From positions 11,711 through 75,710 of the forward strand of contig DAOQWY010000016.1 of NCBI GenBank assembly GCA_035342335.1: a DNA stretch of 64,000 nt, in the 5' to 3' direction. The notes under the pieces were generated by a model that had not been told where the DNA came from, ran no database searches, and saw only the letters and a list, made by a program, of their open reading frames with translations. The stretch is from Bacteroidales bacterium (GTDB lineage: Bacteria; Bacteroidota; Bacteroidia; Bacteroidales; JAGONC01). Both the position numbers and the translations under genes were made by a program. Position 1 is the stretch's first letter. Each line of letters begins with the position of its first letter. This document shows, one piece after another, positions 42,783-64,000 of this stretch.

Positions 42783-43430
42783 TCAAACCTGAATGATCCT
42801 GTACTCAACAGGACGGGGAACCCCCTTGAAGTCCTCAAGGTACTTACCGGAAACGAATTTCAGACAGCCCTGGTCCAGGGAAATCTTTTCTGAGGTGACA
42901 TCTTCCTGGACTTTTTGAAAAAATTTCTCGCTGATCACAATCCGGTACGGTTTGGCCTTCGACATCAGCCTTGCCGAAAGGTCCACGTCCTTTCCGTAAT
43001 AATCATTGTATCCTTCCAGAAAGGTCACATTGTACACCTCAGTACAATAATGTATGGCCACCTTACAGGGGAGAAAGAGATCTTCTACCGGAAAATTCTT
43101 TATGTTGTCGAGGGTTGCATAAATTTCCTCCAGTAACGCAAAGCACGTATGAAAGGTTGACTTGCGGTGAAGCTCCTGGTCAGGGATAAAAAGCATGATC
43201 TCGTCGCCGATTCCTTTGACAATGTTATCCGGGAAGTCGTTGAGAAGCGAGATGAAGTTAAACGTGTTGTTCAGTTTTTGCCCCCACCTGGTAAAGGGCT
43301 CACGGTATTTGATCCAGGTAGAGTCGACAATATCAATGAAAAGGCAAACTCCAGGGCATTTGGGCACGTCCTGAAGCACCCGTTCAATCCCGGCGGACCG
43401 GGGATCCTTGTCATGAATCCATTGAGCCAT
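42783..43430 (-). CDS. Stand-alone class III nucleotidyl-cyclase-like protein
   Basis: 215-aa ORF. Motifs are CLFIDIVDST (first metal Asp), KGIGDEIMLFIP (second metal Asp), and CKVAIHYCTEVYNV...YYGKDVDLSARLMSKAKPYRIVISEKF (the cyclase r.GihtG...yG..vn.AaRl...a....i.vSe pattern, with Asp in place of the usual Asn). It starts 3 bp after the STAS gene. Confidence 0.6.
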   Translation of the reverse strand: MAQWIHDKDPRSAGIERVLQDVPKCPGVCLFIDIVDSTWIKYREPFTRWGQKLNNTFNFISLLNDFPDNIVKGIGDEIMLFIPDQELHRKSTFHTCFALLEEIYATLDNIKNFPVEDLFLPCKVAIHYCTEVYNVTFLEGYNDYYGKDVDLSARLMSKAKPYRIVISEKFFQKVQEDVTSEKISLDQGCLKFVSGKYLEDFKGVPRPVEYRIIQV

Positions 43431-43433
43431 GCA

Positions 43434-43766
43434 TCAGAATTGTTTCAGGGCTTCCTCACGCGTGGGGTAAATTGAAAAAATGCTGGTGAATCCGGAAATC
43501 TCAAAAATCTCACGGATGTTTTCCTGCAGGCAGCAAAGGACGAACATTCCCTTGACGGAATTGATCTTTTTGAGGCCCATCAGCATGATCCGCAGCCCGG
43601 AACTGCTGATGTAGGACAAATCGTTGCAATCTACCAGAAGGTTATGCTGGTTGTCATCGATCAGCTTCATGATTTTCTCCTCAAGAAAACTGTAGTTGGT
43701 GGTGTCTAATCTGCCTTTCAGTTCAAGGATGATGACACCATCCTGTAAAATGTCGGTTATTTCCAT
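43434..43766 (-). CDS. STAS-domain anti-sigma-factor antagonist (RsbV/SpoIIAA-like)
   Basis: 110-aa ORF. LELKGRLDTTN...LLVDCNDLSYISSSGLRIML contains the conserved phosphorylatable Ser context. Confidence 0.85.
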   Translation of the reverse strand: MEITDILQDGVIILELKGRLDTTNYSFLEEKIMKLIDDNQHNLLVDCNDLSYISSSGLRIMLMGLKKINSVKGMFVLCCLQENIREIFEISGFTSIFSIYPTREEALKQF

Positions 43767-43771
43767 TGAAG

Positions 43772-44212
43772 TTATTGTTTGACTTGTTTCGATAAAAGCA
43801 GTCTGTTATGATTCCCGGCGCGCTCATAAGCATAGGTATCCATGATCTCACGAACGAAATGGATCCCCAGTCCTCCGATTTTTCTCTCCTCCGGCGATTT
43901 GTTCAGGTCACCGGGTACATCGACACTGAAGGGATCAAAAGCTTTACCATCATCTTCAATCTGCAGAAAAATCCAGTCGTTCCGGAGATACATCCGAATC
44001 ATGATATTATGGCCGAGATCGTCTTCAAACCCATAAAAGATAATATTGGTGATCAGTTCCTCCAGTACCAGGTTCAACGAAAAAATATCCCTGGAAGTCA
44101 GATCCCATGCCTCTCCCTGCTTCTCAACAAACGCACGTATCCTCTCAAGTTCCTGTATATCATTATGTATGATAAGATCAGCCGCTGTCATGATAGCCCA
44201 ATGATTCCGCAC
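43772..44212 (-). CDS. Anti-sigma regulatory factor-type Ser/Thr kinase (RsbW/SpoIIAB-like, HATPase_c)
   Basis: 146-aa ORF. The N box is LVLEELITNII. IEDDGKAFDP and GGLGIHFVREIMD follow. An alternative start is M8 at 44191. Confidence 0.8.
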   Translation of the reverse strand: MRNHWAIMTAADLIIHNDIQELERIRAFVEKQGEAWDLTSRDIFSLNLVLEELITNIIFYGFEDDLGHNIMIRMYLRNDWIFLQIEDDGKAFDPFSVDVPGDLNKSPEERKIGGLGIHFVREIMDTYAYERAGNHNRLLLSKQVKQ

Positions 44213-44390
44213 GTGTATACGTTATTCATCCGGTAAAGTTAATAAGTTTTGTAAGGTTTTTTTAGATTTTATGGGTAAAGTAAATAAATTAGGTGGATAT
44301 TTACCAAAAGATGGAATTATTTAGGCCAGAAGGTGATCTTGTGAAGATTCTCTTCATTGTGTATGTTCAAATTTTGTAAATTTCACCAGC

Positions 44391-47300
44391 ATGAATGAGA
44401 GCAGAATACCCTTAAATCCCTTTCCAGGCATCCGCAGCTACGAAATAGAGGAAGACTTTCTATTCTTCGGAAGGGATCATCTTATCAGGGAATTGGTCAC
44501 CATGTTGTCTGACACGCATTTTATTGCACTCACCGGGGCTTCCGGAAGCGGGAAATCTTCCCTGATCAAAGCAGGTCTGATCCCCGCACTGGTGAAGCAA
44601 ACGGCCGGTGAAGACACCGGCCGGTGGGAATATGCCATTTTCAGGCCCGGGGATGATCCTATCGGACAAATGGCTGATGCATTGTTTACAACGGTGAGAA
44701 AAGGGACAGGGAATGAAAGTCCTTACAAAGAAGCACAAGAGATTGAGAAGATCCTGCGCTCGGGCAGGGAAGGGTTCGTTGACGTATTTGAAAAGATGCA
44801 CACATTTTTTCGAAACAGTAACCTGCTTCTTGTCATTGATCAGTTTGAGGAGTTGTTCCGGTTCAAAAGCAATTTCACGGATTCAGTTGTCACTGCTGAC
44901 GCTGACCATTTGGTTGAATTGTTACTTTATGCGCTGGAACAGAAGGGTTTTCCGGTCTACGTCATCCTGTCGCTCCGGTCCGATTTCATTGACCGGTGCA
45001 CAGATTACCCGGGTCTGACAGAAAAGATCAACCACGGATATTACCTGATCCCCCGAATGACCCGGGAGGATATCCGCCAGGCCATAACCGGTCCTGTCGG
45101 CGTGGGTGGTGCACAGATATCCGAAAAGCTTGTCGGCCGTTTGCTGGAAGAGGTCAGCACTGAACCAGACCAACTTCCCATCCTGCAGCACGCGCTGATG
45201 AGGACCTGGGAAAAATGGCTCCAGAAACGCACCAGTGAGCCCGTGATCGATGAACATCATTACGAATCCATCGGGACGATGCAGGATGCCCTATCGCTTC
45301 ATGCCGAGGAGATCTTCCTGTCAATGAGTGATGCAAGGCAGCAGGTTCTGGCGGAAAAACTCTTCAAGGCGCTGGTGGTGGTGGGAGAAGACAACAGGGG
45401 CACACGCAGGCCGACACAGCTGGGGGAAATATGCAGCATTGCCGGCGTCAAATCCCAGGAGGTCATTGAGGTGGTCGAAAGCTTCCGCAGTCCTGGCCGA
45501 TCGTTCCTGATGCCACCCCCGGGAGTCTCCTTAAATGAGGACTCGATCATCGACATCACCCACGAGAGCCTGATGCGCATCTGGAAAAGGCTCCGGGTGT
45601 GGGTTGAAGAGGAGACTCAGTCAGCTCAGCTCTATCAGCGGCTTTCCAAGTCCGCCGAACTTTACCAGCAGGGCAAAACAGGGCTCTGGGTGGATCCTGA
45701 GCTGCACCTTGCCGTTAAATGGAAAGAGAACATCAAGCCGAACCAGGCATGGGCCAGCCGGTACGATCCTGCTTTCGACAGGGCCATCCAGTTTCTGAAC
45801 TACAGCCAGAAAGAAGCGGAGCTGGCCGTTGCACGCAAAGAGGAACACCAGAAAAGAGAGCTTGCCAGAGCCAGACGGTTCGCCATCATCCTTGGCCTGG
45901 CCTCGGTCGTTTCCATCTTCTTCCTGATCATATCCATCAATCTCACTTTCAAAGCAGAAGCCAGCGAGCGAAAAGCACAGGAGAAAGAAAAACTGGCCAT
46001 GCTTGAAAACCTTAAAGCTGCCGCACAGCGAAAGGAGGCCATCATACAGCGGAGAATTTCAGAACAACAGCAGCAGATAGCCGAACAACAGAAGATCATC
46101 ACCGAAGAGCAGAAAGAATTTGCCATTCAGCAACAGCAAATTGCGTTCAGTGAGCGTAAGGAGGCCATCCTTCAGAAACAGCTTGCCGAGGAAGCCAGAA
46201 ATGAAGCGGTACTTGCCCGGGACTATGCACAGGAACAGGGCAAGATCGCACTGGAACAAAAAGGGATCGCCGAGTCGGAAAGAGCCAAAGCCGAAGTTTC
46301 GGAAAGGAATGCCAGGAGACTTCGATTGCTTGCAGTGGCAAATGCCATGGCGATTAAATCGGTCGAAATTCAAAAAAGCGTAAAGGGTGATCTTCCTGCC
46401 TTACTGGCTCTTCAGGCTTATCGTCTGAACCGGCAGAATGAAGGATCACAGCAGGATCCGGATATTTTCAAAGCGTTGTCGGGTGTCAGTAAAGGCGATG
46501 CCATGCTCTGGATCCATCAGAATGAAGTGCGTTCAGTTATCGTCGGCAATAAAAGCGGAATCTTGTATTCCTGCAGCCTGGATGGTACGGTGAAGATCAC
46601 GGATACGGGCAAACCAGGCGAGCCTGTCCGTACCCTGAGCACGGAAGAGAAGGACCGTGACGAGTATTTCTCACTGGCCCTGAGTACCGATGAACGCTTT
46701 CTTGCTGCGGGAACCTATCACGGGAAGATCCTTCTGTGGGATCTGAATGACCAGGATGGGATGCCTTTCGTGCTGAACGGGCATACGTTCATTGTCACGC
46801 ACCTCAGCTTCAATCCCGTGAGCGGGGAGCTGGCCTCTTCCAGTGCCGACGGGAGCATCCGCATCTGGGATCCAATGCATGCCAACGATCCCGGACGGGT
46901 GATCGATCAGACCTTTTCAAGAATGACGGTCGTCTGTTACTCCCCGGATGGAAATGAATTGTCGTGGGCCAATGAGAAAGGAGAGATCAAGATAATGAAT
47001 CTCAAAAGCATGGCTGCTATCCCGGTCGTCATCCAGCAGGCAGGCGCAGCAGTCTATTCCATGGCTTTCAGTAATGAGGGAGACCTGCTCGCCTGCGGAG
47101 ACGGCAGCGGATCGATCCTGTTATGGAAGTCAATCCAGCCATCTGGCTCACCGGTTTCCCTGATCGGACATCTGTCCCGTGTCAGCGGTCTTAAATTCAG
47201 TCCCGACGGCACGACACTGGGAAGCTGCAGCTACGATGGCACGGTCAGGCTGTGGAACTACCTGTCGGCCGAGGAACCTCCCATCGTGATGGATGACTAT

Positions 47301-47513
47301 GATTTCTGGATCACCTGCCTGGCCTTCACGGCCGGTGGTGATAAACTGATCACGGGCAGCGCAGATAAAACGATCAGGATGAGGTTAATCAACACGGAAG
47401 TGCTTACACGTCTTTTATGTGCCGATCTTTCAAGGAACATGACCCAGGAGGAATGGAATCTTTATGTCGGGCCTGACATCGGTTATTCCAAAACCTGCGA
47501 AAATCTTCCTTAA
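44391..47513 (+). CDS. STAND-type P-loop NTPase - single TM - coiled coil - WD40 beta-propeller protein
   Basis: 1040-aa ORF. NPFPGIRSYEIEEDFLFFGRD precedes Walker A GASGSGKSS and Walker B LLLVIDQFEELF. The hydrophobic segment is FAIILGLASVVSIFFLIISINLTF (~residue 505). A Q/E/K-rich coiled coil of ~150 aa follows. About 7 WD repeats are present (SADGSIRIWD, SYDGTVRLWN, SADKTIRM). The C-terminus is SRNMTQEEWNLYVGPDIGYSKTC. Confidence 0.75.
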   Translation: MNESRIPLNPFPGIRSYEIEEDFLFFGRDHLIRELVTMLSDTHFIALTGASGSGKSSLIKAGLIPALVKQTAGEDTGRWEYAIFRPGDDPIGQMADALFTTVRKGTGNESPYKEAQEIEKILRSGREGFVDVFEKMHTFFRNSNLLLVIDQFEELFRFKSNFTDSVVTADADHLVELLLYALEQKGFPVYVILSLRSDFIDRCTDYPGLTEKINHGYYLIPRMTREDIRQAITGPVGVGGAQISEKLVGRLLEEVSTEPDQLPILQHALMRTWEKWLQKRTSEPVIDEHHYESIGTMQDALSLHAEEIFLSMSDARQQVLAEKLFKALVVVGEDNRGTRRPTQLGEICSIAGVKSQEVIEVVESFRSPGRSFLMPPPGVSLNEDSIIDITHESLMRIWKRLRVWVEEETQSAQLYQRLSKSAELYQQGKTGLWVDPELHLAVKWKENIKPNQAWASRYDPAFDRAIQFLNYSQKEAELAVARKEEHQKRELARARRFAIILGLASVVSIFFLIISINLTFKAEASERKAQEKEKLAMLENLKAAAQRKEAIIQRRISEQQQQIAEQQKIITEEQKEFAIQQQQIAFSERKEAILQKQLAEEARNEAVLARDYAQEQGKIALEQKGIAESERAKAEVSERNARRLRLLAVANAMAIKSVEIQKSVKGDLPALLALQAYRLNRQNEGSQQDPDIFKALSGVSKGDAMLWIHQNEVRSVIVGNKSGILYSCSLDGTVKITDTGKPGEPVRTLSTEEKDRDEYFSLALSTDERFLAAGTYHGKILLWDLNDQDGMPFVLNGHTFIVTHLSFNPVSGELASSSADGSIRIWDPMHANDPGRVIDQTFSRMTVVCYSPDGNELSWANEKGEIKIMNLKSMAAIPVVIQQAGAAVYSMAFSNEGDLLACGDGSGSILLWKSIQPSGSPVSLIGHLSRVSGLKFSPDGTTLGSCSYDGTVRLWNYLSAEEPPIVMDDYDFWITCLAFTAGGDKLITGSADKTIRMRLINTEVLTRLLCADLSRNMTQEEWNLYVGPDIGYSKTCENLP

Positions 47514-47553
47514 GGCAACCTTATTTTTCAGGTATCCACGATATGAATGTCGA

Positions 47554-50130
47554 ATGAAACTGATCAAACCATTTACCACCCTGCTCATTCTTCTGGGGTG
47601 CCTGGCCCAGGCCTTTCCCCAGACCGATTGCGGAGAAGCTGCACTGACCGAGGCCAGGAAAAAATATGAATCCGGTAACTTTGAACTGGTCATCTCAATG
47701 CTGACCGGGTGTGCAGTCAGCATGCCTGACAACCAGCAAAAGGCGGAAGCTTACCGGTTGCTCACCCTTTCGTACCTGGCCATGGATTCCATCAGCACCG
47801 CCACCGAGTGTGCCACCCAGCTGCTGAAAATAAATCCAAACTTTGAACCGGACCTGTTCGATCTTCCACGATTCATACAGCTGATCCACAGGCTCAACGA
47901 AGCAACGCGGGTCCAGCAGGTCACCTCTGTCTCCAAGCGTGCTGAAAACATCTATGAAGCACCTGCCAACATCCTGGTCGTTACCCGGGAAGAGATCGAA
48001 CAGCGGGGATACATGGATCTGGTGGAAATGTTGCGCGATGTCCCGGGCTTTGACCTGACCATGTTTTACGGATCGCAGTATGCCAACATCTACCAGAGGG
48101 GATTCCGGCAGAACAACACCGAAAAAACGCTCGTTCTGATCGATGGCATCGAGGATAATGACCTGTGGACAAACTGGGCGGATATTTCCCGGCAGTATCC
48201 CCTATCGAATATTGAAAGAGTGGAAATCATTTACGGGCCGGCCTCCACCATGTACGGGCCAAATGCCTTTGCAGGGGTGATCAACATCGTTACCCAGGAC
48301 GCCGCTGCGATCATCAAGGAGGATCGCAAACTGGGCATCCGCGCCAATGCAGGGTACGGGTCGTATCGTTCAGCCTGCGCGGATCTATCGGTCTCCGCCC
48401 GAAAGAATAAATTCAGCAGTTCATTCACCGGCCGGTTCTACCAGTCAGATGAAATGGATCTTTCCGCCCAGCCCTATTTCGACTATGACCCTGCCGTTTA
48501 CGACACTGTTGATTACGTTCAGCTTCTCAGTGTTTCGGATCACGCAAGGGAGTATCTGTCAGACAATGAATTACCGGTAAATCATCCCTACTATGACGTG
48601 AGTCCTGATTCGTCAGCCATCACGCTCACCCCTGCCGGTGCCCAGGCAGCCAGGGACCTGGATAAGACAGGGTATGCACAGACCGTGAACGGGAATCCGG
48701 TTGGTTTCACCAATGAGACCCATTGCTGGTTCGTCAACGGAAAACTTCAGTTCAGCAATTTCACCCTCGGATTTCAGTCGTGGAAAAAAAGTGAAGGATC
48801 CACCACACAGTACACCGACCTTCTCGTACCGGGCTCGGAAAACGGTTTTATCTGGGCTCCCCAGCTTTCTTACATCTACACGAAGTATGAAGAACAGATC
48901 AGTAAACGCTTGTATGTATACAGTCTGACCAACTACCGTATCCATTCCCTGACCGAGGATTCCAAATACGTTTCTGTCAAGAACTACTCCCTGGGAAACT
49001 ATGACCTTGCCAGCCTGGTTGGGGCGACAGAACCTGAATGGACCACCCTGTACGCTTATGAAAGTTCCAGGCAGCTCCGTACCGAATTAAAACTGATCTG
49101 GGATCCCCTTCAGCAACTCAGCGTAGTCTCCGGGATCGAGGTCAGAAACAGTTCCCTGCAGGGCAGTTACCTCTACAGTACGTATCCCCATCCGCAGGAT
49201 TCAGCTGTTCTTAATCCTTCGCCCAAAGGAGGAAATACCTATAATACCTGGGACGTGGGCATCTACGCCCAGGCTACCTATACGCTGTTTGAAGACCTCA
49301 GGCTGACCCTGGGAGCCCGCTATGACTATAATAAAATCCGCTCAAGCGGCGGATTTGGATCAGAAATAAGCCCTCGAATAGCGATCGTTTACACCCCGGG
49401 ATCTTTTGTCTTTAAAGCCATTTACTCAAGGGGTATCGAAAATGTATCCAACTGGACCAAATTCTCATCCGCAGGGAACCGTCTACCCAATCCAACGCTG
49501 GGTACGGAAAGCATACGGAACTACGAGGTAACAGGAGCGTGGATGATCCGGAAGGAATTCGTTGTTGATGTCGCTTTCTATCATTCGATCATAGAAGATG
49601 TCGTCGGAACGGTAACGGTACCTGACCAGCCCGGCAAGAACCAGAATGCCAACATAGGTGTTTTCAGGATCAATGGTTTTCAGTCGAACCTGACCTACCG
49701 GACCAGGACCTTCTCGGCATATGCAAATTATACCTTTACAGATCCCCGGCAGACCTACAGTGAGCTTGGGGAAGTGGACAATTTGATCGGTGACATTTCA
49801 AAGCACAAGTTCAACGTAGGAGCCAACAAAACTTTCTTTGAAGACCTGCAGGTGAACCTGAGGCTGAATTATACCGGCAAGAGAGAAACCGGAGCCGGAA
49901 CGACGGTACCTTTGAACTGGAATACGTTTCCAGCCGTCGTTCTGCTCAATGGAGCCGTCACGTACAGGAACGACCTGGTTCCAGGCCTGAATGTCCAGCT
50001 GGTTTGCAATAATGTACTCGGCAAGACCTATTATCATCCAGGTACCAAGGCTGCTGATGGCGTGCTCAGCCCGACGGACATCCTGCAAAGAGGGAGGCAC
50101 TGGGTGATCCGGTTGTTATTTGAGTGGTAA
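47554..50130 (+). CDS. TonB-dependent receptor with an N-terminal TPR-like extension
   Basis: The signal peptide is MKLIKPFTTLLILLGCLAQA. A ~110-aa TPR-like helical segment follows. The plug domain is ENIYEAPANILVVTREEIEQRGYMDLVEMLRDVPGF...IERVEIIYGPASTMYGPNAFAGVINIVT. The barrel has a terminal aromatic residue (LLFEW). The start was moved to the ATG at 47554. Confidence 0.75.
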   Translation: MKLIKPFTTLLILLGCLAQAFPQTDCGEAALTEARKKYESGNFELVISMLTGCAVSMPDNQQKAEAYRLLTLSYLAMDSISTATECATQLLKINPNFEPDLFDLPRFIQLIHRLNEATRVQQVTSVSKRAENIYEAPANILVVTREEIEQRGYMDLVEMLRDVPGFDLTMFYGSQYANIYQRGFRQNNTEKTLVLIDGIEDNDLWTNWADISRQYPLSNIERVEIIYGPASTMYGPNAFAGVINIVTQDAAAIIKEDRKLGIRANAGYGSYRSACADLSVSARKNKFSSSFTGRFYQSDEMDLSAQPYFDYDPAVYDTVDYVQLLSVSDHAREYLSDNELPVNHPYYDVSPDSSAITLTPAGAQAARDLDKTGYAQTVNGNPVGFTNETHCWFVNGKLQFSNFTLGFQSWKKSEGSTTQYTDLLVPGSENGFIWAPQLSYIYTKYEEQISKRLYVYSLTNYRIHSLTEDSKYVSVKNYSLGNYDLASLVGATEPEWTTLYAYESSRQLRTELKLIWDPLQQLSVVSGIEVRNSSLQGSYLYSTYPHPQDSAVLNPSPKGGNTYNTWDVGIYAQATYTLFEDLRLTLGARYDYNKIRSSGGFGSEISPRIAIVYTPGSFVFKAIYSRGIENVSNWTKFSSAGNRLPNPTLGTESIRNYEVTGAWMIRKEFVVDVAFYHSIIEDVVGTVTVPDQPGKNQNANIGVFRINGFQSNLTYRTRTFSAYANYTFTDPRQTYSELGEVDNLIGDISKHKFNVGANKTFFEDLQVNLRLNYTGKRETGAGTTVPLNWNTFPAVVLLNGAVTYRNDLVPGLNVQLVCNNVLGKTYYHPGTKAADGVLSPTDILQRGRHWVIRLLFEW

Positions 50131-50179
50131 GGACCAAAATTGTTAAATTGTCAAATTGTTAAGCTGAGGTTGTACGAAA

Positions 50180-58104: not shown

Positions 58105-58122
58105 TCACGAAGTGAAGAAGAA

Positions 58123-58749
58123 ATGAATGCGTACCTGATCCGAAGATCTTCTAACCTCGTGTTGCTGGCTTTCATCCTGATGACTGGAAAAATGCAGGCC
58201 CAGACCACCTTCATGATCCATGAATTCAATCTGATTTACCGGGGCGAGTTCAAACCCAGGCTTTCACTCAAGGCAGATCATTGGTTTACCGACCGTCTGG
58301 CCTTTAACAGTTATTTTTACGCCACCCCTAACTGGTCGGAAGGAGATGTCGGAATCGGTTATCAGGTCGCCAACTGGGCTTATGTTGGCTGCATGGTCGG
58401 CATTCAGAATGAAGGGGATCACCTGATGCGGATCATGCCGAACTTTTACCTTGTCAAAGGAAATTTTTCGCTGCTGGGCCTTTTCGGACACGGCATCGGT
58501 ACAGATACCGACCGTTTTGCACTGCAGTTCTTTTACAATTTCGGGTCCTTCAAGGTTGGAGCCGAGGGGATCAAGGAATTCACCATCCGGGCACTTGGAC
58601 CGCGTTTTGACTATACCCTGGTGGACGCGCCATCGATCCACCTCTGGGCTGCACCGTACTATGATTTTACCTACGACAAGTACGCTGCCATGTTTGGATT
58701 GTACGCCATATTTGGGAGCATCAGCCCGAAAGAAACACTTTTTGATTGA
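58123..58749 (+). CDS. Hypothetical secreted protein, possible small outer-membrane beta-barrel
   Basis: 208-aa ORF. The signal peptide is LVLLAFILMTGKMQAQ. Alternating hydrophobic/aromatic strands run throughout. No family was recognised. Confidence 0.4.
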   Translation: MNAYLIRRSSNLVLLAFILMTGKMQAQTTFMIHEFNLIYRGEFKPRLSLKADHWFTDRLAFNSYFYATPNWSEGDVGIGYQVANWAYVGCMVGIQNEGDHLMRIMPNFYLVKGNFSLLGLFGHGIGTDTDRFALQFFYNFGSFKVGAEGIKEFTIRALGPRFDYTLVDAPSIHLWAAPYYDFTYDKYAAMFGLYAIFGSISPKETLFD

Positions 58750-58841
58750 TAAAGGAGGAACCATAGTCAATTTAATGGATCGAAATTGCTATATTTGGAA
58801 AGTCATAACAGAATCACTTACCCGTAAACCAAAAGAACCAT

Positions 58842-60020
58842 ATGGCAAAGAATGATCCGATCAAGATCATGATTGTAGACGATGAGCTGGATCTGGAGAT
58901 CCTTTTCCGTCAGAAATTCCGGAAGCAACTCAAAGAGAGCGAATGGAGATTCGAATTTGCAGCGAACGGCCTTCAGGCACTGGCGCTCCTTCTGGAGCAC
59001 CCGGATACATCCATCATCCTGTCGGACATCAACATGCCCGAAATGGACGGGTTGACCTTGCTGGCAAGGCTCAATGAGCTGAAAAATCCTGCCCTGAAGA
59101 CCGTGATCGTATCTGCTTACGGAGACATGGACAACATCAGGACCGCCATGAACCGGGGTGCGTTTGATTTCATAACAAAGCCCATCAATTTTGATGATCT
59201 GGAGATCACGATCCATAAGACCATCGAACAGATCCGGATTCTTTACAAGGCAAATGAAGAGCACGAAGAGCTGGTTGCCCTGCAGCACGATTTGAACATT
59301 GCGGCCGAGATCCAGCATTCCATTCTTCCAAAGAAATTCCCGCCCTTTCCCGACCGGACCGATTTCGACATCCACGCCTTTATGAATGCAGCCAAGTCGG
59401 TCGGGGGGGATTTCTACGACTTTTTCCTGATCGATCAGGACCATATCGGGCTGGTGATCGCTGATGTTTCAGATAAAGGCATCCCGGCCGCCATTTACAT
59501 GGCGGTCAGCCGCACCATTATCCGGGCAGCCGCCATAAAAGGCCTTCCGCCAAAGGAGTGCCTGGAATACTCCAACCAGCTGCTCTGCAAGGAAAACGTA
59601 AACCAGATGTTCGTAACGGTCTTTTACGGAATCCTCAATACCCAGACCGGGGAGTTCCACTATACCAACGGCGGGCACAACCCACCTTATGTGATCAGCC
59701 GGGGAGGGATGGTCAGAAGCCTTGAGAAAACCGGCGATGTCGTGCTCGGGGCCATCGATGATGTGCCTTACCATCAGAAAAGCACAAAGTTCCAGCCAGG
59801 AGAAGCGCTGTTTCTTTACACCGACGGGGTGACAGAAGCCATGAATGTCAACTATGAACTTTTTTCGGAAGCACGCCTCGAATCGGCGCTGAAGGCTGCC
59901 AGTCAGAACACACCGGGTGAGATCATCCTGCAGGTTTCGTCAGCCATTGAAAACTTTACCCTGGGTGCTCAGCAATCAGACGATATCACAATGATGGTGG
60001 TGAGGTATAACCCAGCATAA
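58842..60020 (+). CDS. Response regulator receiver fused to a PP2C/SpoIIE-type Ser phosphatase (RsbU-like)
   Basis: The receiver domain shows IMIVDDELD...ILSDINMPEMDG...SAYGD...ITKP. The PPM domain shows GGDFYDFF...VIADVSDKGIPAA...YTDGVTEA...DDITMMVV. Confidence 0.9.
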   Translation: MAKNDPIKIMIVDDELDLEILFRQKFRKQLKESEWRFEFAANGLQALALLLEHPDTSIILSDINMPEMDGLTLLARLNELKNPALKTVIVSAYGDMDNIRTAMNRGAFDFITKPINFDDLEITIHKTIEQIRILYKANEEHEELVALQHDLNIAAEIQHSILPKKFPPFPDRTDFDIHAFMNAAKSVGGDFYDFFLIDQDHIGLVIADVSDKGIPAAIYMAVSRTIIRAAAIKGLPPKECLEYSNQLLCKENVNQMFVTVFYGILNTQTGEFHYTNGGHNPPYVISRGGMVRSLEKTGDVVLGAIDDVPYHQKSTKFQPGEALFLYTDGVTEAMNVNYELFSEARLESALKAASQNTPGEIILQVSSAIENFTLGAQQSDDITMMVVRYNPA

Positions 60021-60035
60021 AATCCCTGAAAGACC

Positions 60036-61160
60036 GTGCTCCGACTGAAAAAAACACCCTCCATCTTCAAAGGTTTGCTATGGGTCCTCCTTGTAGCGCT
60101 TATCCTGCTTTTTACCGACCGCCACAACCGTCATCCCGAACCCGGGAAGGGAAACAAGACCTATCAAAACCTTACCGTACCAATGCTGATGGATGATGAG
60201 ATCACCCCTGAATTTAAAGCCTATGTCAGAGAAGGGCTTTCAAAGGGATGGCCGGTTGAGCGAATGAGACTGGCCCTGATCGAATACTCCGACAGTCCCT
60301 TTACGGAATATACGGAAGAGGGCATAAAAGATGGGTTGAACAGGATTGGTCTGGTAGCAGATCAGGATTACCTGCTTGAAATCATGAATGCCCAGGGCGA
60401 CATCACCATGTTGAACAGTATCATGGATGTTGTAGCCGTCAAACCATTCGATTTTGTGATGACAACCTCCACCCCTACCCTTCAGGCTGCATGCAGAAAG
60501 CTGCCGCACAAAACCGTAATCTTTACCACAGTGGCTGATCCTGTTACTGCCGGTGCCGGAACAAGCTTTACAGAACACCGGCCGAACATGACCGGGATCT
60601 CGACCCTGTCCGACTTTGAAGGCATGGTCAGGCTGGTCAGGGCGCTGATGCCGGGGATGACAAGAGTTGGCACGCTGTTCAATCCGTCGGAAGTGAATGC
60701 CGTTGTGAACAAGGAGACCTTTGAATCCACCCTGGCCTCCAACGGGTTGACCCTGGTAGCCGTTCCGGTGAATGCTGCATCTGAAATCGGCAATGCAGTC
60801 CAATCGCTTGCTGCAATGGATATCCAGGCCATCTGCCAGGTCATCGATAACATAACGGGAGCAGCTTTCCCTCAGATCATCCGCGTGGCCAATGACTGCC
60901 ATTTACCTTACTTCACGTTTGACTCCCCCCAGATCAAGGATGGAGCCCTGGCTGCCGTTGCCAGGGATTACCACCAGGCAGGCATTGAAGGGGTTTACCT
61001 GCTGGCCAGGGTCATCGCCGGTGAAGATCCTGCAGCAATTCCCTTTCAGTTTGTCAGCAAGACCGATATTCTGATCAATAAACACGTTGCTGAAAAATCA
61101 GAGATAAAGATACCGGCGGCCTACCAGGCGTATTTGATTGAAGTGAAAGATCATGAGTGA
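60036..61160 (+). CDS. ABC transporter substrate-binding protein (ABC_sub_bind/COG2984-like)
   Basis: 374-aa ORF with a GTG start and an N-terminal anchor. RVGTLFNPSEVNAV...LVAVPVNAASEIGNAVQSL...ICQVIDN is the pattern of the uncharacterised-ABC SBP family. Family recall is unverified. Confidence 0.65.
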   Translation: MLRLKKTPSIFKGLLWVLLVALILLFTDRHNRHPEPGKGNKTYQNLTVPMLMDDEITPEFKAYVREGLSKGWPVERMRLALIEYSDSPFTEYTEEGIKDGLNRIGLVADQDYLLEIMNAQGDITMLNSIMDVVAVKPFDFVMTTSTPTLQAACRKLPHKTVIFTTVADPVTAGAGTSFTEHRPNMTGISTLSDFEGMVRLVRALMPGMTRVGTLFNPSEVNAVVNKETFESTLASNGLTLVAVPVNAASEIGNAVQSLAAMDIQAICQVIDNITGAAFPQIIRVANDCHLPYFTFDSPQIKDGALAAVARDYHQAGIEGVYLLARVIAGEDPAAIPFQFVSKTDILINKHVAEKSEIKIPAAYQAYLIEVKDHE

Positions 61161-62400
61161 ACAATTTACCATCCGTAAAGAAATTAAGGAAGGGCAACTT
61201 CTTCTGGTACTGAACGGAAGGCTCGACGCCTACTGGTCGGACATTCTGGGTGAAGAGATGGATACCTGCATCCACGATGGACATTATTCGATCTCAGTGG
61301 ATACTGCCGGGATTACGTATGTCAGTTCAGCAGGTTTAAGGATCTTCCTGAATTATTACAAAAAACTCAAAGAGATCCAGGGTTCATTTGTTCTTATGAA
61401 AACCTCCCCGCAGGTAAGAACGATCCTTGAAATGGCTGGGCTGATGCAACTTATGCAGGGCAAAGAACACCTTGAACCGGAGGAGCCCAAAAAACAGACC
61501 GGGGAATCGCTCGTCGGTCACGTCAGGTATGTCATTCAACCCTTTGTTACGGAAGAAGGTCTGAAAGGATGGATCACCGGATCTGCAGGCGATCTGACCA
61601 CACGGAACATTACACCAGCCAGCGTCCGTTCCGTTGACTTTCACTCCGGCCTCTACGGTGCTGGCATCGGAGCATTTGGTGATGATTTTGGTGATTATTG
61701 TCACCGGATGGGTGAATTTATCGGACTTGGAGACGTGATTGCCTGTTTACCGACAGATGGCCGGAAAAAACCCGACTACCTGAGCAGGGTTGGCCGGATG
61801 GTACCGCGTGTCAACCTCCTCTACGGGCTTCTCTTTGAAGGAAAATTTTCGCACAAAATACGGTTTGAGATGACAGGTCCGAACAAAAAGATATACCTCA
61901 GCGACCTCATTGCTCAACTTCACGGGCTGATCCCTTTCGGAAGGGCCGGCATGGTCATGGTGGCTGAAACAACAGGTCTTGTGGGGGCTGCACTTTCAGC
62001 GGATCCGTTGTCGGGTGAGCTGTCAAACCCGCTGTTCTCCTTTCCGGAAATCAAACAACAGGTAACCGTTACAACAGAACCCGAGTTCAGCGGCAGGCTG
62101 ACGGTCACCACCGGTATGGTCGCCCTGGCAACAAATGATGAAGCGTATGGATATGGACGGCCGCTGAAGTCCGGCTCACCGTTTTTGGGACACTTGCATA
62201 CTGCCGTCTTTTCTTATCATCCGCTGAAAAAACAATGGGATGATCCGCAGGAGGTGATACATCGCCTGGTGGAGGAGCACCAGTTCGAAACGATCCTTCA
62301 CCTGCTTAATGATGAACGGCCCCATGCAGGAATCGGAGAAAGCGAATTTCAGACTGGTACGGTCTGGATGGGCGAGATAGAAACGCTGGAAAAAAACTGA
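61153..62400 (+). CDS. STAS-domain protein fused to a ~300-aa domain of unknown function
   Basis: 415-aa ORF. Residues 1-100 are STAS (LLLVLNGRLDAYW...SISVDTAGITYVSSAGLRIFLNYYKKL...FVLMKTSPQVRTILEMAGL). The remainder has no motif I recognise. It overlaps the SBP gene by 8 bp. Confidence 0.65.
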   Translation: MSEQFTIRKEIKEGQLLLVLNGRLDAYWSDILGEEMDTCIHDGHYSISVDTAGITYVSSAGLRIFLNYYKKLKEIQGSFVLMKTSPQVRTILEMAGLMQLMQGKEHLEPEEPKKQTGESLVGHVRYVIQPFVTEEGLKGWITGSAGDLTTRNITPASVRSVDFHSGLYGAGIGAFGDDFGDYCHRMGEFIGLGDVIACLPTDGRKKPDYLSRVGRMVPRVNLLYGLLFEGKFSHKIRFEMTGPNKKIYLSDLIAQLHGLIPFGRAGMVMVAETTGLVGAALSADPLSGELSNPLFSFPEIKQQVTVTTEPEFSGRLTVTTGMVALATNDEAYGYGRPLKSGSPFLGHLHTAVFSYHPLKKQWDDPQEVIHRLVEEHQFETILHLLNDERPHAGIGESEFQTGTVWMGEIETLEKN

Positions 62401-62415
62401 TCGAAAGGCACGACC

Positions 62416-63354
62416 ATGAGTTTACTGATAAGCTCCCTGATCATCGGACTAATTCTCTCGCTTCTGGCAGTCGGAGTTTTTATCAGTTTCCGCATCTTCA
62501 ATTTCCCCGACATCACCGTGGAAGGATCCATCACCTTTGGTGCTGCACTGGCTGCAGCTGCCATTCAAGGGGGCTTGCATCCGCTGGTTGGAACCCTGCT
62601 CGCATTTCTGGGAGGTTTCATCGCCGGCATGGTCACAGGGACCCTTCACGCCAAATTCAAGATCAATGCCCTGCTGGCGGGCATACTGGTCATGACCGCT
62701 TTATATTCGGTCAATCTGCACGTGATGGGCAAAAGCAATATTCCCCTGCTTACACAGACGACTTTGTTTACGTACGTGGAAAAACTTAGCAGCGTAGTGT
62801 TCCCTGCTACCGGCATCCTGAACCTGGCCGGGTGGAACGTTCAAGCCAGAGACATCATGGCTGCTTCCGTGTTGCTTATCACCATCTCACTGATCGGATG
62901 GATCTTGCGCTGGTTTTTCTCCAGCCATTTTGGCACGGCCATGCGAGCTACCGGGAACAATCAACAGATGATCAGGGCACTTGGTGTCAACACCAATCGG
63001 ATGATTGTCCTGGGGATCGGGCTGGCCAACGGACTGATTGGCCTATCCGGTGCCCTGCTTGCCCAGTACCAGGGATTTGCAGACGCTCAGATGGGCATAG
63101 GCATGCTGGTATGGGGACTTGCCAGCGTGATCATTGGTGAAGCGCTCATCAATCCACGAAGTGTCGGACTGCTGATCATGGGCGCGATCCTGGGCTCTGT
63201 TTTTTTTAGAATACTGGTGGCCATTGCACTCCGGTTAGGCATGAATCCAAACGATCTTAAACTGATCACAGCCCTGTTCGTCCTGATCGCCCTGGTGTTA
63301 CCAACCCTGTTAAAAAAACTCAGAATCAAACCCTTGATGAATGACTACAGGTGA
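62416..63354 (+). CDS. ABC transporter permease (BPD_transp_2/COG4120-like)
   Basis: 312-aa ORF with about 9 TM helices. AMRATGNNQQMIRALGVNTNRM is the conserved cytoplasmic loop of this permease family. Confidence 0.8.
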   Translation: MSLLISSLIIGLILSLLAVGVFISFRIFNFPDITVEGSITFGAALAAAAIQGGLHPLVGTLLAFLGGFIAGMVTGTLHAKFKINALLAGILVMTALYSVNLHVMGKSNIPLLTQTTLFTYVEKLSSVVFPATGILNLAGWNVQARDIMAASVLLITISLIGWILRWFFSSHFGTAMRATGNNQQMIRALGVNTNRMIVLGIGLANGLIGLSGALLAQYQGFADAQMGIGMLVWGLASVIIGEALINPRSVGLLIMGAILGSVFFRILVAIALRLGMNPNDLKLITALFVLIALVLPTLLKKLRIKPLMNDYR

Positions 63355-64000
63355 ACCCATACTGAGGATCATCGATCTCTGGAAGACCTTTCACCCGGGC
63401 ACCCCCAATGAGGTCAGGGCACTGCAGGGGATCAGCTGCGAAATCCAGGCCGGGAGCTTTGTCATCCTGGTGGGGACCAACGGCAGCGGAAAATCGACCC
63501 TGCTGAATGCAGTTGCCGGGACCTTCCTGCCCGACTCCGGTAAAATCCTGTTCAAACAAAAGGATATCACGCATAAACCTGAGCACAAAAGGGCACTTCA
63601 TTTCGGCAGGGTCTTTCAGAATCCGTTCTCCGGCACCGCTCCTGACATGACCGTTTCCGAGAACCTGTCGCTGGCAGCAAAAAAAGGATCCCCCCGTGGA
63701 CTGGGCTTGGCCCTGAACGCAAGGAGCAGGTCCCTTTTCAGGGAACGGATCAAATCGCTGAACATGGAAATGGAAGACAGGCTCCAGACACCCATTGGAA
63801 AGCTTTCCGGAGGTCAGCGCCAGGCCATCACGCTGCTGATGGCCTCGTGGGTGAAACCCGACATCCTGCTGCTGGATGAACATACTGCCGCCCTGGATCC
63901 CAAAACAGCCTCCAAGGTAGTTCAGCTCACCCGCGAAATCGTCGAAAAGGATCACCTGACTACCCTGATGGTCACACATTCCATGCAGCAGGCCATTCTT
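63341..64000 (+). CDS. ABC transporter ATP-binding protein (COG1101-like), C-terminal end cut by the window edge
   Basis: It is absent from the ORF track because it is open-ended. Manual translation from the ATG at 63341 gives MTTGEPILRIIDLWKTFHPGTPNEVRALQGISCEIQAGSFVILVGTNGSGKSTLLNAVAG...LSGGQRQAITLLMA...ILLLDEHTAALD. Walker A, signature and Walker B are all present. It overlaps the permease gene by 14 bp. Confidence 0.9.
   Translation, partial: MTTGEPILRIIDLWKTFHPGTPNEVRALQGISCEIQAGSFVILVGTNGSGKSTLLNAVAGTFLPDSGKILFKQKDITHKPEHKRALHFGRVFQNPFSGTAPDMTVSENLSLAAKKGSPRGLGLALNARSRSLFRERIKSLNMEMEDRLQTPIGKLSGGQRQAITLLMASWVKPDILLLDEHTAALDPKTASKVVQLTREIVEKDHLTTLMVTHSMQQAIL

Follow-up and report, generated by a model that had tools for sequence, protein, structure and literature searches.

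The window analysed here is the whole 64,000-nucleotide stretch of DNA, from an uncultured Bacteroidales bacterium. Fourteen genes were mapped in positions 42783–64000 from the listing of open reading frames and a reading of the window end, three on the − strand and 11 on the + strand. These genes and their adjoining features are as follows:

40317–42778, + strand: ZnuA-ZnuC-ZnuB zinc ABC uptake genes (ZnuA 198 bits; ABC_tran, ABC-3)
42783–44212, − strand: module A, with RsbW-like kinase, STAS and cyclase genes
42783–43430, − strand: 215-aa stand-alone class III nucleotidyl cyclase homologue, putative output of module A (Pfam Guanylate_cyc)
43434–43766, − strand: STAS1, 110-aa STAS anti-sigma-antagonist-type protein (Pfam STAS 75 bits; TIGR00377 84 bits)
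43772–44212, − strand: RsbW/SpoIIAB-type GHKL serine kinase (Pfam HATPase_c_2 73 bits; weak matches to RsbW and SpoIIAB NCBIfam models)
44213–44390, no strand: divergent spacer between the kinase and STAND genes, 178 bp (199 bp with the ATG start of the kinase)
44391–58749, + strand: module B, six-gene envelope core, STAND protein to small secreted protein
44391–47513, + strand: 1040-aa nSTAND1 P-loop NTPase with WD40 propeller (nSTAND1 313 bits; WD40 128 bits)
47554–50130, + strand: TonB-dependent receptor, 858 aa (Plug 77 bits; TonB_dep_Rec_b-barrel 93 bits)
50180–51049, + strand: formyltransferase-like enzyme, 289 aa (Formyl_trans_N 32 bits)
51046–54288, + strand: 1080-aa NTT/TLC-like nucleotide-transporter homologue-HEAT-CNB fusion (Pfam MFS_1, HEAT_2)
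~53908–54288, + strand: degenerate CNB-fold domain of the fusion (C-terminal profile)
54325–58104, + strand: sensor histidine kinase, 1259 aa (Pfam Reg_prop, Y_Y_Y, HisKA, HATPase_c)
58123–58749, + strand: small secreted protein, 208 aa (signal peptide)
from 58842, + strand: module C, RR-PP2C and ABC importer with embedded STAS protein
58842–60020, + strand: RR-PP2C (RsbU/SpoIIE-type phosphatase), 392 aa, start of module C (SpoIIE 172 bits; Response_reg 79 bits)
60036–61160, + strand: ABC substrate-binding protein (ABC_sub_bind, TrpX-like family; PF04392 154 bits)
61153–62400, + strand: STAS2, 415 aa, STAS plus acetolactate-decarboxylase/PTD012-like domain (STAS 46 bits)
62416–63354, + strand: ABC permease (BPD_transp_2; Pfam 85 bits)
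63341 to >64000, + strand: ABC ATPase, incomplete at the window edge (ABC_tran 102 bits; 276 aa in the source contig)

The + strand genes are separated, in order, by +40, +49, −4, +36, +18, +92, +15, −8, +15 and −14 bp, reproducing from the ORF listing the run of eleven genes reported in the first-pass annotation, with three overlaps and gaps of −14 to +92 bp; the divergence of the kinase-STAS-cyclase operon from the 178-bp spacer was likewise recovered. Terminator and sigma-70 promoter scans gave only background-level signal. The spacer holds two copies of GTAAAGTwAATAA, read at 44233–44245 and 44275–44287, and these repeat blocks are conserved in compared loci L006–8 and L086–87 and recognizable in L049 and L101; an Rfam search of the spacer gave no match. 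A TAnnTTTG box lies at 58790–58797, inside the 92-bp gap before the RR-PP2C gene. The reported absence of a sigma factor also held, as domain searches found no sigma domain among the 14 proteins; ECF-type sigma genes lie outside 42783–64000, one at 35756–36343 and one ~7 kb beyond the window end.

Short-gap, co-directional gene runs are ordinary in bacteria, and it is the co-conservation of the genes across genomes that makes this locus more than chance. The comparison set was built with the transporter fusion as seed and comprised 77 species genomes; the compared loci come from metagenome bins and are phylogenetically non-independent. All six core genes are colinear in 41 of the 77, and the STAND, receptor and transporter genes occur together in 59 loci, with the STAND gene colinear with the core. 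An RR-PP2C gene adjoins the core in 28/77, either downstream or divergently upstream. The cyclase accompanies only 4/77 core loci, most cyclase operons being self-contained and elsewhere in the genome. The region, initially described as a single supercluster of ~21 kb, is by these comparisons three evolutionarily separable modules (A, B and C) lying side by side rather than one unit. What is genuinely conserved is the six-gene core, running from STAND protein to small secreted protein, a point that the first-pass annotation overlooked.

The domain calls of the first-pass annotation were reproduced by Pfam, including a Y_Y_Y kinase lacking a receiver domain; the cNMP-binding match is significant only with a profile. 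The core reads as a putative envelope machine made up of an outer-membrane receptor, an inner-membrane ATPase, a transporter, an enzyme, a secreted protein and a sensor kinase. The STAND protein consists of the NTPase, one TM helix (residues ~494–516; kept in 54/56 orthologues), a coiled coil and the WD40 propeller; the ATPase is anchored in the inner membrane, and we infer that the coiled coil and propeller face the periplasm. An NTPase-less derivative (TM-coiled-coil-WD40) is found in L111. The receptor ORF opens at 47464, with a signal peptide from 47554 and an 858-aa gene call in L001; an additional ~110-aa N-terminal domain precedes the plug, the N-terminal 147 aa gave no match in a Pfam search and no NCBIfam subfamily attains its cutoff. 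Among PDB sequences the formyltransferase-like enzyme most resembles PurN, Fmt and ArnA, and its catalytic triad N156, H158 and D196 is kept in 54 orthologues; in some loci the slot is occupied by unrelated families. The histidine kinase, with Reg_prop propellers, Y_Y_Y, TM, HisKA and HATPase_c in that order, follows the transporter fusion in 62/77 loci, its start codon frequently overlapping the stop codon of the fusion. The 208-aa protein is outer-membrane-like only by sequence pattern and had no Pfam, NCBIfam or PADLOC match, and orthologues of 25–36% identity fill the same slot in 44 loci.

The transporter fusion had been proposed to read the cyclic nucleotide. Its family profile matches the ADP,ATP carrier NTT structures 9j3n (E = 6e-11) and 9j3j. 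The single-sequence cNMP-binding match, the sole weak domain call, is PF00027 at 13.4 bits (E = 0.078); a profile of the C-terminus matches the CNB domains of PKG, PKA-R, MloK1, HCN and PycTIR (E 1e-9 to 1e-6), and this profile evidence makes the domain a genuine homologue of the CNB fold. The window protein lacks the Gly-Glu and Arg-Ser/Thr-Ala residues of the phosphate-binding cassette. The reader step is unsupported because the cassette is unconserved even in relatives at 57–78% identity and the domain is truncated, with the beta-roll largely deleted, in most orthologues. The CNB-like tail probably does not read cyclic nucleotide via a canonical phosphate-binding cassette.

Module A is a member of an operon family that is widespread in Bacteroidota and usually headed by its own sensor PP2C (dCache-HAMP-PP2C), a gene absent from the module in this window. 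The four-gene form PP2C-RsbW-STAS-cyclase occurs in 33 loci, the PP2C often being fused to the RsbW domain, and in 56 of the 66 loci that could be scored a STAS1-type gene immediately precedes the cyclase. Because the cyclase family member is almost always the final gene of the PP2C-RsbW-STAS operon, a reasonable reading is that it would serve as the partner switch's output. In the RsbW-like kinase (146 aa if translated from GTG, 139 aa if from the ATG at 44191) the N-box, G1 (DDG) and G2 (GGLG) motifs are readable, and STAS1 bears the phosphorylatable Ser motif YISSSGL. The cyclase scores 27.4 bits against a Guanylate_cyc cutoff of 21.9 and has at least 499 homologues (~215 aa, ~60% identity). 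In this family D33, K72, D76, D143 and R154 are invariant, as is D150, an Asp instead of Asn at the transition-state position. Its AF2 model (pLDDT 84, pTM 0.85) matches the catalytic domains of CyaC, CyaB, Rv1900c and Cya2 (TM 0.6–0.8, E ~1e-10). With the fold and the metal, substrate and Arg residues in place, the protein is predicted to be active; the Lys72/Asp143 pair suggests cAMP as the product, and the Asn to Asp swap could make activity or product atypical. The Znu genes and the cyclase gene meet tail-to-tail across 4 bp; ZnuABC flanks the operon in the window's own clade and also in L049, L101 and L109–111, and a ZIP zinc transporter follows it in 24 of 59 other loci. ZnuABC, outside 42783–64000, is possibly a functional neighbour of the operon.

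In module C, the substrate-binding protein scores 142 bits against NF041285 (TrpX), under the cutoff of 390. STAS2 carries ~300 aa without Pfam assignment beyond its STAS domain, and its invariant residues are a Ser-Ser pair (S58, S59) and a His triad (H347, H349, H383). In the AF2 model (pLDDT 86) the N-terminal domain matches SpoIIAA, RsbV and MlaB, and the C-terminal domain matches acetolactate decarboxylases (E ~1e-7, TMt ~0.6). RR-PP2C is followed by STAS2 in 17 of the 77 loci, with the permease next in nine core loci; the ATPase gene can be seen whole in L001 and L003. The permease also follows STAS2 in L166–L168, three more loci, from distant phyla, that have STAS2 between the binding protein and permease, in operons of the form binding protein-STAS2-permease(-ATPase). 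Among these phylum-diverse operons one carries an additional RsbW-like kinase and one a receiver protein; in most loci no STAS2-cognate kinase is evident. STAS2, judging from these arrangements, is integral to a type of ABC-importer operon that spans phyla, a point missed at first pass.

Y_Y_Y kinase, RR-PP2C, STAS proteins, RsbW-like kinase and cyclase are recurrent neighbours in divergent lineages, in varied gene orders. The order is kinase-(secreted protein)-RR-PP2C-RsbW-STAS in L010 and L045 and STAS2-permease-ATPase-cyclase in L112; in L111, WD40 protein-Y_Y_Y kinase-RR-PP2C (the last 72% identical) adjoins RsbW-STAS-cyclase without receptor or transporter. PP2C-less cyclase operons diverge from the STAND/WD40 cluster in the window and in L006–8, L049, L086–87, L101, L109 and L111; an operon without its own PP2C adjoins a cluster that provides an RR-PP2C. 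Recurrent adjacency in different arrangements supports a route from kinase to RR-PP2C to STAS/RsbW to cyclase, the part of the originally proposed circuit that finds support; cNMP reading by the fusion is a part that does not.

From the domain identities, conserved residues, modularity and recurrent linkage observed, we infer, with a probability of about one half, that the three modules would act together in a single branched signalling pathway whose end point is the synthesis of a cyclic nucleotide, its phosphotransfer, binding and transport steps all belonging to the proposal. The Y_Y_Y/propeller kinase would report on the periplasm and phosphorylate the receiver domain of RR-PP2C, which, once activated, would dephosphorylate STAS proteins along two branches. 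In one, STAS2, built into the binding protein-STAS2-permease-ATPase operon, would gate the ABC importer, on the model of MlaF and its STAS partner MlaB, and the His-triad acetolactate-decarboxylase-like domain of STAS2 may bind metal or ligand. In the other, dephospho-STAS1 would capture the RsbW-like kinase, or act on the cyclase directly, and the freed 215-aa class III cyclase dimer would make cyclic nucleotide. The HEAT and degenerate CNB tail of the NTT-type transporter homologue would be cytoplasmic. Precedents are HsbD, a diguanylate cyclase bound by HsbA-P in the pathway below the RR-PP2C-kinase HsbR (PMC5085249), and a STAS-fused glycosyltransferase under the control of the RR-PP2C HenR (PMC13555669).

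The kinase assignment may differ where a soluble 290-aa histidine kinase is present: its gene lies directly upstream of RR-PP2C in many loci, and it, rather than the large Y_Y_Y kinase, may be the cognate partner there. The cyclase operon also retains an older gene neighbourhood that includes UvrA, an ECF sigma gene and zinc-transporter genes, and part of the module adjacency may therefore reflect history rather than function. About 49/77 core clusters are without an adjacent RR-PP2C and 73/77 without a cyclase, and the coupling is therefore lineage-specific or in trans. Under the branched route, RR-PP2C would, in this lineage, have assumed the role that a dCache-HAMP-PP2C normally plays at the head of the kinase-STAS-cyclase operon.

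The gene map that the first-pass annotation had proposed for positions 42783–64000 was reproduced by an ORF listing together with a reading of the window end, and comprises the following genes:

42783–43430, minus strand, gene of the kinase–STAS–cyclase operon
43434–43766, minus strand, gene of the same operon
43772–44212, minus strand, gene of the same operon
44391 to the window edge, plus strand, run of eleven genes

Gaps within the plus-strand run are +40, +49, −4, +36, +18, +92, +15, −8, +15 and −14 bp, and the divergent spacer measures 178 bp, or 199 bp with the kinase ATG start of the public gene calls. Pfam and NCBIfam confirmed all of the domain calls with the exception of the cNMP-binding (CNB) domain. 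The reported absence of a sigma factor also holds: none of the 14 proteins of 42783–64000 has a Pfam sigma-factor domain that might mark a sequestered kinase target, and neither FecR nor an ECF sigma factor is found by Pfam in the cluster. ECF-type sigma genes lie outside the run, at 35756–36343 and ~7 kb past the window end, 6–7 kb off on either side. A co-occurrence analysis of these families, run with one genome per GTDB species, recovered a colinear core, and the description of the region as one supercluster gives way to three modules, each found alone in many genomes. These are the minus-strand operon for an RsbW-like kinase, a 110-aa STAS protein (STAS1) and a 215-aa class III cyclase; a six-gene core (44391–58749) for a STAND protein, a TonB-dependent receptor, a formyltransferase-like protein, a 1080-aa transporter–HEAT–CNB fusion, a Y_Y_Y kinase and a 208-aa secreted protein; and the genes for a 392-aa response regulator–PP2C protein (RR–PP2C) and an ABC importer, in which a 415-aa STAS fusion (STAS2) is embedded.

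The closest named relative of the window is a Lentimicrobiaceae bin, with 74–88% protein identity. A Bacteroidales small SRP RNA (3496–3602, 97.5 bits), found along with a tRNA gene at 4281–4353, fits the Bacteroidales placement of the window. Two giant minus-strand ORFs at 4409–12634 and 12806–22462 (2741 and 3218 aa), carrying InlB-type B-repeats, YDG and dockerin domains and a C-terminal Por_Secre_tail, are probably type IX secretion cargo. Within the divergent spacer, two copies of GTAAAGTwAATAA lie 42 bp apart (44233–44245 and 44275–44287); these repeats are conserved in close relatives, are recognizable in loci with ~45–50% protein identity and may form an operator or promoter element. 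A Bacteroidetes-type −7 box, TATATTTG (fitting TAnnTTTG), is present at 58790–58797 in the 92-bp gap, 45 bp before the RR–PP2C start, and suggests that the RR–PP2C and ABC genes constitute a transcription unit of their own. Scans for sigma-70 promoters and intrinsic terminators gave counts equal to the shuffle background and are uninformative for Bacteroidota, and an Rfam search for riboswitches or other RNAs that might hint at the substrate returned no match in the cluster or the divergent spacer.

The distribution of the core was followed with a scan seeded with aligned members of the 1080-aa family, using one genome per GTDB species, and all window proteins were placed on the resulting 77 loci by tblastn and ORF clustering. 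All six core genes are colinear in 41 of the 77 loci and the first five in 47; STAND, receptor and transporter genes occur together in 59, and transporter and kinase genes in 62. Many of the loci that lack a complete core end at contig edges. Identities of the core proteins drop in step (~45–60%) through Lentimicrobiaceae, Prolixibacteraceae, other Bacteroidales and an Ignavibacteriaceae bin, and a three-gene version (STAND, receptor and transporter) is present in Acidobacteriota. The core has been inherited vertically and is no mobile island. Our literature searches (nSTAND1; ADP translocase with HEAT and CNB; RR–PP2C with STAS and ABC) found no description of this cluster. In ~13 loci (within L013–L048, where L numbers are handles of homologous loci in other genomes or contigs), the core is followed by genes for a zinc-type alcohol dehydrogenase, a 283-aa lipoprotein and a 1022-aa fused ABC-2 ATPase–permease, all without a counterpart in the window.

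The STAND protein has an nSTAND1 P-loop domain followed by a hydrophobic helix (near residue 494), which is kept in 54 of 56 orthologues; beyond the helix come a long coiled coil and a WD40 propeller. We infer that the propeller is periplasmic because positively charged residues precede the helix and because locus L111 encodes an NTPase-less TM–coiled-coil–WD40 derivative of the protein. The adjacent receptor has ~110 additional N-terminal residues, and its N-terminal 147 aa have no Pfam match at E ≤ 10. The Y_Y_Y kinase joins the propeller/Y_Y_Y sensor of Bacteroides hybrid systems to HisKA and HATPase_c domains, with no Pfam match to Response_reg or HTH_AraC at E < 0.01. For the 1080-aa transporter family, the profile matches the ADP,ATP carrier (NTT) structures 9j3n (E = 6.4e-11) and 9j3j (E = 1.6e-4) over positions ~126–442, one homologue matches Pfam TLC, and sources label relatives ‘ATP:ADP antiporter’ or ‘Npt1/Npt2 family’. 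By sequence, the 12-TM domain of the fusion is a homologue of the NTT/TLC nucleotide transporters, and its transport function is a prediction.

The formyltransferase-like protein keeps an Asn-His-Asp triad in 54 orthologues; among solved structures, PurN, Fmt and ArnA are closest to it. Its slot between receptor and transporter holds other genes in some loci (L049, L052, L054, L057, L065 and L066), in what looks like non-orthologous replacement of the enzyme. A 276-aa family occupies the slot in four of these (L049, L052, L054 and L057; for example, L054 9149–9979), while an HMGL-like enzyme and a P-loop protein are encoded in L065 (8140–9363) and L066 (6046–9146). The 276-aa family appears GNAT-like by eye, yet it has no Pfam match and its best match is an aminoglycoside acetyltransferase at E = 0.24, and a GNAT assignment would be speculative.

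The 215-aa cyclase belongs to a family of at least 499 members that are ~215 aa long and ~60% identical, and scores 27.4 bits against a Pfam cutoff of 21.9. Residues D33, D76, K72, D143 and R154 are invariant in 17 aligned homologues; from motif comparison with canonical cyclase domains, we take D33 and D76 to be the metal-binding aspartates, K72 and D143 the substrate Lys/Asp pair and R154 the phosphate-binding arginine. The family lacks the transition-state Asn of the VNxAxR motif, and an invariant Asp150 (VDLSAR) stands there throughout. An AlphaFold model (pLDDT 84) matches CyaC, CyaB, Rv1900c and Cya2 in Foldseek (TM 0.6–0.8, E ~1e-10), with adenylyl and guanylyl cyclases in the top ranks. 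Judging by the Lys/Asp pair, the predicted activity would use a purine substrate.

The proteins encoded with the cyclase are those of a partner switch. The kinase matches HATPase_c_2 at 73 bits and falls well under the cutoffs of the RsbW and SpoIIAB NCBIfam models; STAS1 matches STAS at 75 bits and has a YISSSGL motif that places a phosphorylatable Ser in a DSSG-like loop. The RR–PP2C protein scores 172 bits to SpoIIE over residues 199–389 of its 392 aa, and its metal-site motifs GGDFYD, DVSDKG, TDGVTE and DDIT are readable. In a metagenome scan seeded on the cyclase family, 80 loci were recovered, of which 66 could be judged for STAS adjacency; a STAS gene lies immediately upstream of the cyclase in 56 of these, and the order PP2C–RsbW–STAS–cyclase occurs in 33 loci. 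The PP2C of such operons is a 620–870-aa membrane sensor (dCache_1–HAMP–SpoIIE in L084), often fused to an RsbW domain. The cyclase is likely to be the output of the switch because it is the sole non-switch gene in the operon. Cyclase operons without a PP2C gene were found in the window clade, L049 and five further loci, all divergent from a STAND/WD40 cluster.

Several side features of the cyclase neighborhood concern metals and gene order. In 24 of 59 loci (L116–L164; for example, L129 8739–9467), the gene after the cyclase runs in the same direction and encodes a ZIP transporter (Pfam Zip, 91 bits), with gaps of −1 to 172 bp; in nine loci, a PTPS/QueD-like gene follows the cyclase. ZnuABC genes are arranged tail-to-tail with the cyclase in the window (40317–42778, 4 bp apart) and in L006–8, L049, L086–87, L101 and L109–111. 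Since two non-homologous zinc systems adjoin the same operon, there is a hint of a metal link for the kinase–STAS–cyclase genes. Farther along, the minus-strand ECF sigma gene at 35756–36343 lies beside an exosortase–EpsH-like gene, with a UvrA gene after it (window 34989–36343 and 36525–39368). The order cyclase operon, UvrA, ECF sigma also occurs in L084, L117, L131 and L135, and points to an older synteny.

The second STAS protein, STAS2, has 115 homologues in Bacteroidota, Verrucomicrobiota, Acidobacteriota, Gemmatimonadota and other groups, and in every sampled locus its gene is located between those for an ABC_sub_bind protein and a BPD_transp_2 permease. An RsbW-like kinase gene is appended to one sampled operon, and a receiver protein gene comes after another. 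STAS2 matches STAS at 46 bits, the Ser-Ser of its phospho-loop (S58 and S59) is invariant in 32 homologues, and His347, His349 and His383 are invariant in the alignment. In the predicted model (pLDDT 86), the N-terminal STAS domain matches SpoIIAA, RsbV and MlaB (for MlaB, 7ch8_K by profile and 6xgy_B, 6zy3_B and 7ch8_L by fold), and the C-terminal domain matches zinc-dependent acetolactate decarboxylases and PTD012. From the invariant Ser-Ser and His residues and the two-part fold, STAS2 looks like a phosphorylation-controlled accessory subunit of the importer, similar to MlaB, with an added domain that may bind a metal or a ligand. Two candidates were set aside here. An apparent fusion of the STAS2 C-terminal domain to the permease (protein P0351, L170 6001–7344), considered as Rosetta-stone evidence, comes from a contig with several split genes and is most likely a frameshift artefact. 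A gene for a 195-aa HD-domain protein lies ~70 bp past the ABC ATPase in L003 (11828–12415), beyond the position of the window end; it was considered as a cNMP phosphodiesterase and rejected on a generic HD match (28 bits) and one weak PDB match.

The modules are connected by gene arrangements that recur in different forms. RR–PP2C adjoins the core in 28 of the 77 loci, either after the secreted protein or divergently upstream of STAND; it is followed by STAS2 in 17 loci and then by the permease in nine. Loci L010 and L045 have the order kinase–(secreted protein)–RR–PP2C–RsbW–STAS. In L111, genes for the TM–WD40 protein, a Y_Y_Y kinase and an RR–PP2C 72% identical to that of the window diverge from RsbW–STAS–cyclase, with no receptor, formyltransferase or transporter gene, and L112 has STAS2–permease–ATPase–cyclase. 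These recurrences of one set of partners in shuffled orders are not easily put down to inherited synteny alone, and they support a chain from the kinase through RR–PP2C and STAS/RsbW to the cyclase. We infer each mechanistic step of this chain from gene order, residues and folds. In the window lineage, RR–PP2C appears to stand in for a lost sensor PP2C. A soluble 290-aa HisKA–HATPase kinase, paralogous to the C-terminal end of the large kinase, is encoded directly upstream of RR–PP2C in at least 12 loci (L012–L030 and L059; for example, L021 2406–3278), often with the upstream RR–PP2C arrangement, and is absent from the window.

Whether the cyclase product is read within the cluster is a separate matter. 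In the circuit of the first-pass annotation, an envelope signal would pass from the kinase to RR–PP2C, STAS/RsbW and the cyclase, and the CNB domain of the fusion would read the cNMP and tune transport; the chain as far as the cyclase is supported, whereas the closing loop through a reader is not. The CNB-fold assignment itself is right on sequence grounds because a profile of 11 orthologous C-terminal domains matches true CNB domains in the PDB (5d1i, E = 2.9e-9; PKG, 1e-8; PycTIR, 3.5e-8; MloK1 and HCN, ~1e-6; PKA-R also, within the range 1e-9 to 1e-6). Scanned singly, the C-terminal sequences score 13–17 bits against PF00027, where the cutoff is 27.5; none of the 11 orthologues reaches it, and the window sequence stays subthreshold at 13.4 bits, although PF00027 is the sole or best weak match in four of the 11, including the window protein. 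The phosphate-binding cassette of CNB domains contains Gly-Glu and Arg-Ser/Thr-Ala. This cassette is missing from the window protein, a result that the first-pass annotation itself had named as refuting its proposal, here for the reader step: Ile-Arg is found where the cassette has Gly-Glu, and the Arg-Thr-Arg near the Arg-Ser/Thr-Ala position is replaced by KGK, RGN, PSG, TKD or HND in relatives of 57–78% identity, with no consensus at that position in the family profile. The beta-roll is partly or largely deleted in ~50 of 66 scorable orthologues. The full-length domain is kept in all scorable loci where an RsbW or STAS1 gene is adjacent (L006–8, L010, L057 and L065), and among the ~50 loci with a shortened domain these genes are adjacent in L045 only, where the ORF is truncated. 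This association is suggestive but confounded by phylogeny, as the full-length domain is ancestral and is found too in loci without a cyclase nearby. The homology of the membrane domain to nucleotide transporters would suit the full circuit, but canonical cyclase operons have no neighboring CNB gene, and we consider the complete loop improbable.

Within the same pathway, the step between STAS1 and the cyclase could be wired differently. STAS1, possibly when phosphorylated, may bind and regulate the cyclase directly, with the RsbW-like protein acting as a STAS kinase only. STAS and cyclase are the tightest pair in these operons (56 of 66 loci), in some cases with no adjacent RsbW gene, and the RsbW domain is often fused to the membrane sensor PP2C, where it would be poorly placed to sequester a soluble cyclase dimer. 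It is the RsbW-type protein that binds the output protein in classic partner switches, however, and none of the 499 cyclase homologues is fused to STAS. Direct STAS–cyclase contact is documented in Pseudomonas (PMC5085249), and we regard this wiring as a tentative possibility. The modules could also be functionally independent neighbors whose shared region is kept by vertical synteny. Their separate occurrence in many genomes, the older synteny of the cyclase operon with UvrA, ECF sigma and zinc genes and the possible promoter box ahead of RR–PP2C agree with this, but the linkage recurs in rearranged form: RR–PP2C lies upstream or downstream of the core, RsbW–STAS genes follow RR–PP2C in L010 and L045, L111 retains a reduced cluster, L112 unites importer and cyclase genes, and the cyclase operons that lack a PP2C specifically adjoin clusters that supply RR–PP2C. 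Independence is a serious alternative that we hold to be unlikely. Far less probable still is an anti-phage defence island in which a STAND NTPase sensor would act with a Pycsar-like cyclase and a CNB-plus-membrane effector. The nSTAND1 membership, a weak PADLOC match to PycC (24 bits) and PDB profile matches to the uridylate cyclase 8jsz and to PycTIR 8jsk could be read in this way, but the remaining PADLOC matches are insignificant, at P-loop level, and the core is colinear and diverges in step over 77 species genomes and several phyla, unlike mobile defence islands. The STAND protein has a TM helix and a putatively periplasmic WD40 propeller in place of an effector domain, the Lys/Asp pair fits a purine substrate, and Foldseek puts adenylyl and guanylyl cyclases at the top. 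Moreover, the neighbors of the cyclase are STAS, RsbW and metal transporters, not a CNB effector; the CNB-fold protein is encoded 7.6 kb off on the other strand, outside any Pycsar two-gene pairing.

A more far-reaching reading takes the core as an undescribed trans-envelope machine with two partner-switch branches, perhaps tied to zinc or another metal, and we give it a probability of roughly 0.2. The membrane-anchored STAND ATPase would reach the TonB-dependent receptor via its periplasmic coiled coil and WD40 propeller and would work with the NTT-like transporter. The Y_Y_Y kinase and RR–PP2C would relay the state of this machine into the two branches, one leading to cAMP synthesis by the minimal class III cyclase and the other gating the ABC importer via the STAS–enzyme-like fusion.

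Known systems resemble parts of this arrangement. As in the Bacillus RsbU–RsbV–RsbW and SpoIIE–SpoIIAA–SpoIIAB switches, the set includes a SpoIIE-family PP2C, a STAS protein with a conserved Ser and a GHKL serine kinase, and the predicted STAS fold aligns structurally with SpoIIAA and RsbV; unlike them, the window has no sigma target, a receiver-driven phosphatase, two STAS proteins (one a 415-aa fusion) and, as its sole non-switch operon gene, a class III cyclase. A closer parallel in layout is the Pseudomonas aeruginosa HptB–HsbR–HsbA–HsbD pathway, in which the phospho-STAS protein HsbA-P binds the diguanylate cyclase HsbD; two-component input to an RR–PP2C, a STAS relay, a palm-fold cyclase output and the lack of a dedicated sigma factor in the module are common to both, whereas HsbR also has a kinase domain (PMC5085249). 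The Pseudomonas output is a membrane GGDEF diguanylate cyclase that makes c-di-GMP and its input runs via an Hpt relay, in contrast to the soluble 215-aa class III cyclase and the direct Y_Y_Y kinase input that would operate here. In Anabaena, the RR–PP2C protein HenR controls the STAS-fused glycosyltransferase All4160, so that an RR–PP2C is paired with a STAS domain fused to a functional domain and phosphorylation acts straight on the effector (PMC13555669); in STAS2 the fused domain is acetolactate-decarboxylase-like and the gene lies within an ABC importer operon. MlaB of MlaFEDB is likewise a STAS protein encoded inside an ABC transporter operon, but this ~100-aa protein, which is not known to undergo phosphorylation, works for a lipid exporter-type system, whereas STAS2 has a 300-aa extra domain and the Ser-Ser pair and belongs to a binding-protein-dependent importer.

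For the core, the FecA–FecR–FecI system offers a hypothesis by analogy, that the receptor–STAND pair may act as a TonB-dependent transducer. Both combine a TonB-dependent receptor bearing an extra N-terminal domain with a neighboring single-pass inner-membrane protein whose large domain is putatively periplasmic and whose cytoplasmic domain could signal, but here the extension is not STN, the partner is a STAND ATPase with WD40 and there is neither an anti-sigma factor nor an adjacent ECF sigma factor. The membrane domain of the 1080-aa family is homologous to the NTT/TLC carriers of plastids and obligate intracellular bacteria; here it is fused to ~500 aa of HEAT repeats and a degenerate CNB domain in free-living Bacteroidota. 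The kinase differs from the Bacteroidetes HTCS proteins in having the sensor, HisKA and HATPase_c domains without a receiver or AraC HTH. Pycsar shares with the cluster a small class III-type cyclase and a CNB-fold membrane protein in one neighborhood, along with weak model matches, but here the two-gene operon and the cassette residues are lacking, the cyclase sits inside a partner switch and the region is vertical and colinear.

Partner switches are best known as controls on sigma factors, and sigma-less versions with an enzyme output, such as HsbD and All4160, are only now being characterized; cyclic-nucleotide signaling in Bacteroidota is poorly understood. What is new here is a proposed form of partner switching on an uncharacterized, conserved envelope system, with a probable class III cyclase output and a putative second, STAS-fusion ABC branch. 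The six-gene core brings to light a strongly conserved, unannotated envelope cluster that unites protein types seldom found together, namely a STAND ATPase with a putatively periplasmic WD40 propeller, a TonB-dependent receptor and an NTT-like transporter with HEAT repeats, and the STAS2 loci reveal a cross-phylum type of ABC importer with a built-in phosphorylatable STAS-fusion subunit. A widespread Bacteroidota partner-switch operon that ends in a class III cyclase would add cAMP-type signaling to the outputs of partner switching. Should the far-reaching reading hold, no earlier partner switch would have had a class III cyclase as its output, and a STAND NTPase would for the first time have been assigned a role in envelope transport or signaling instead of in immunity or transcription.
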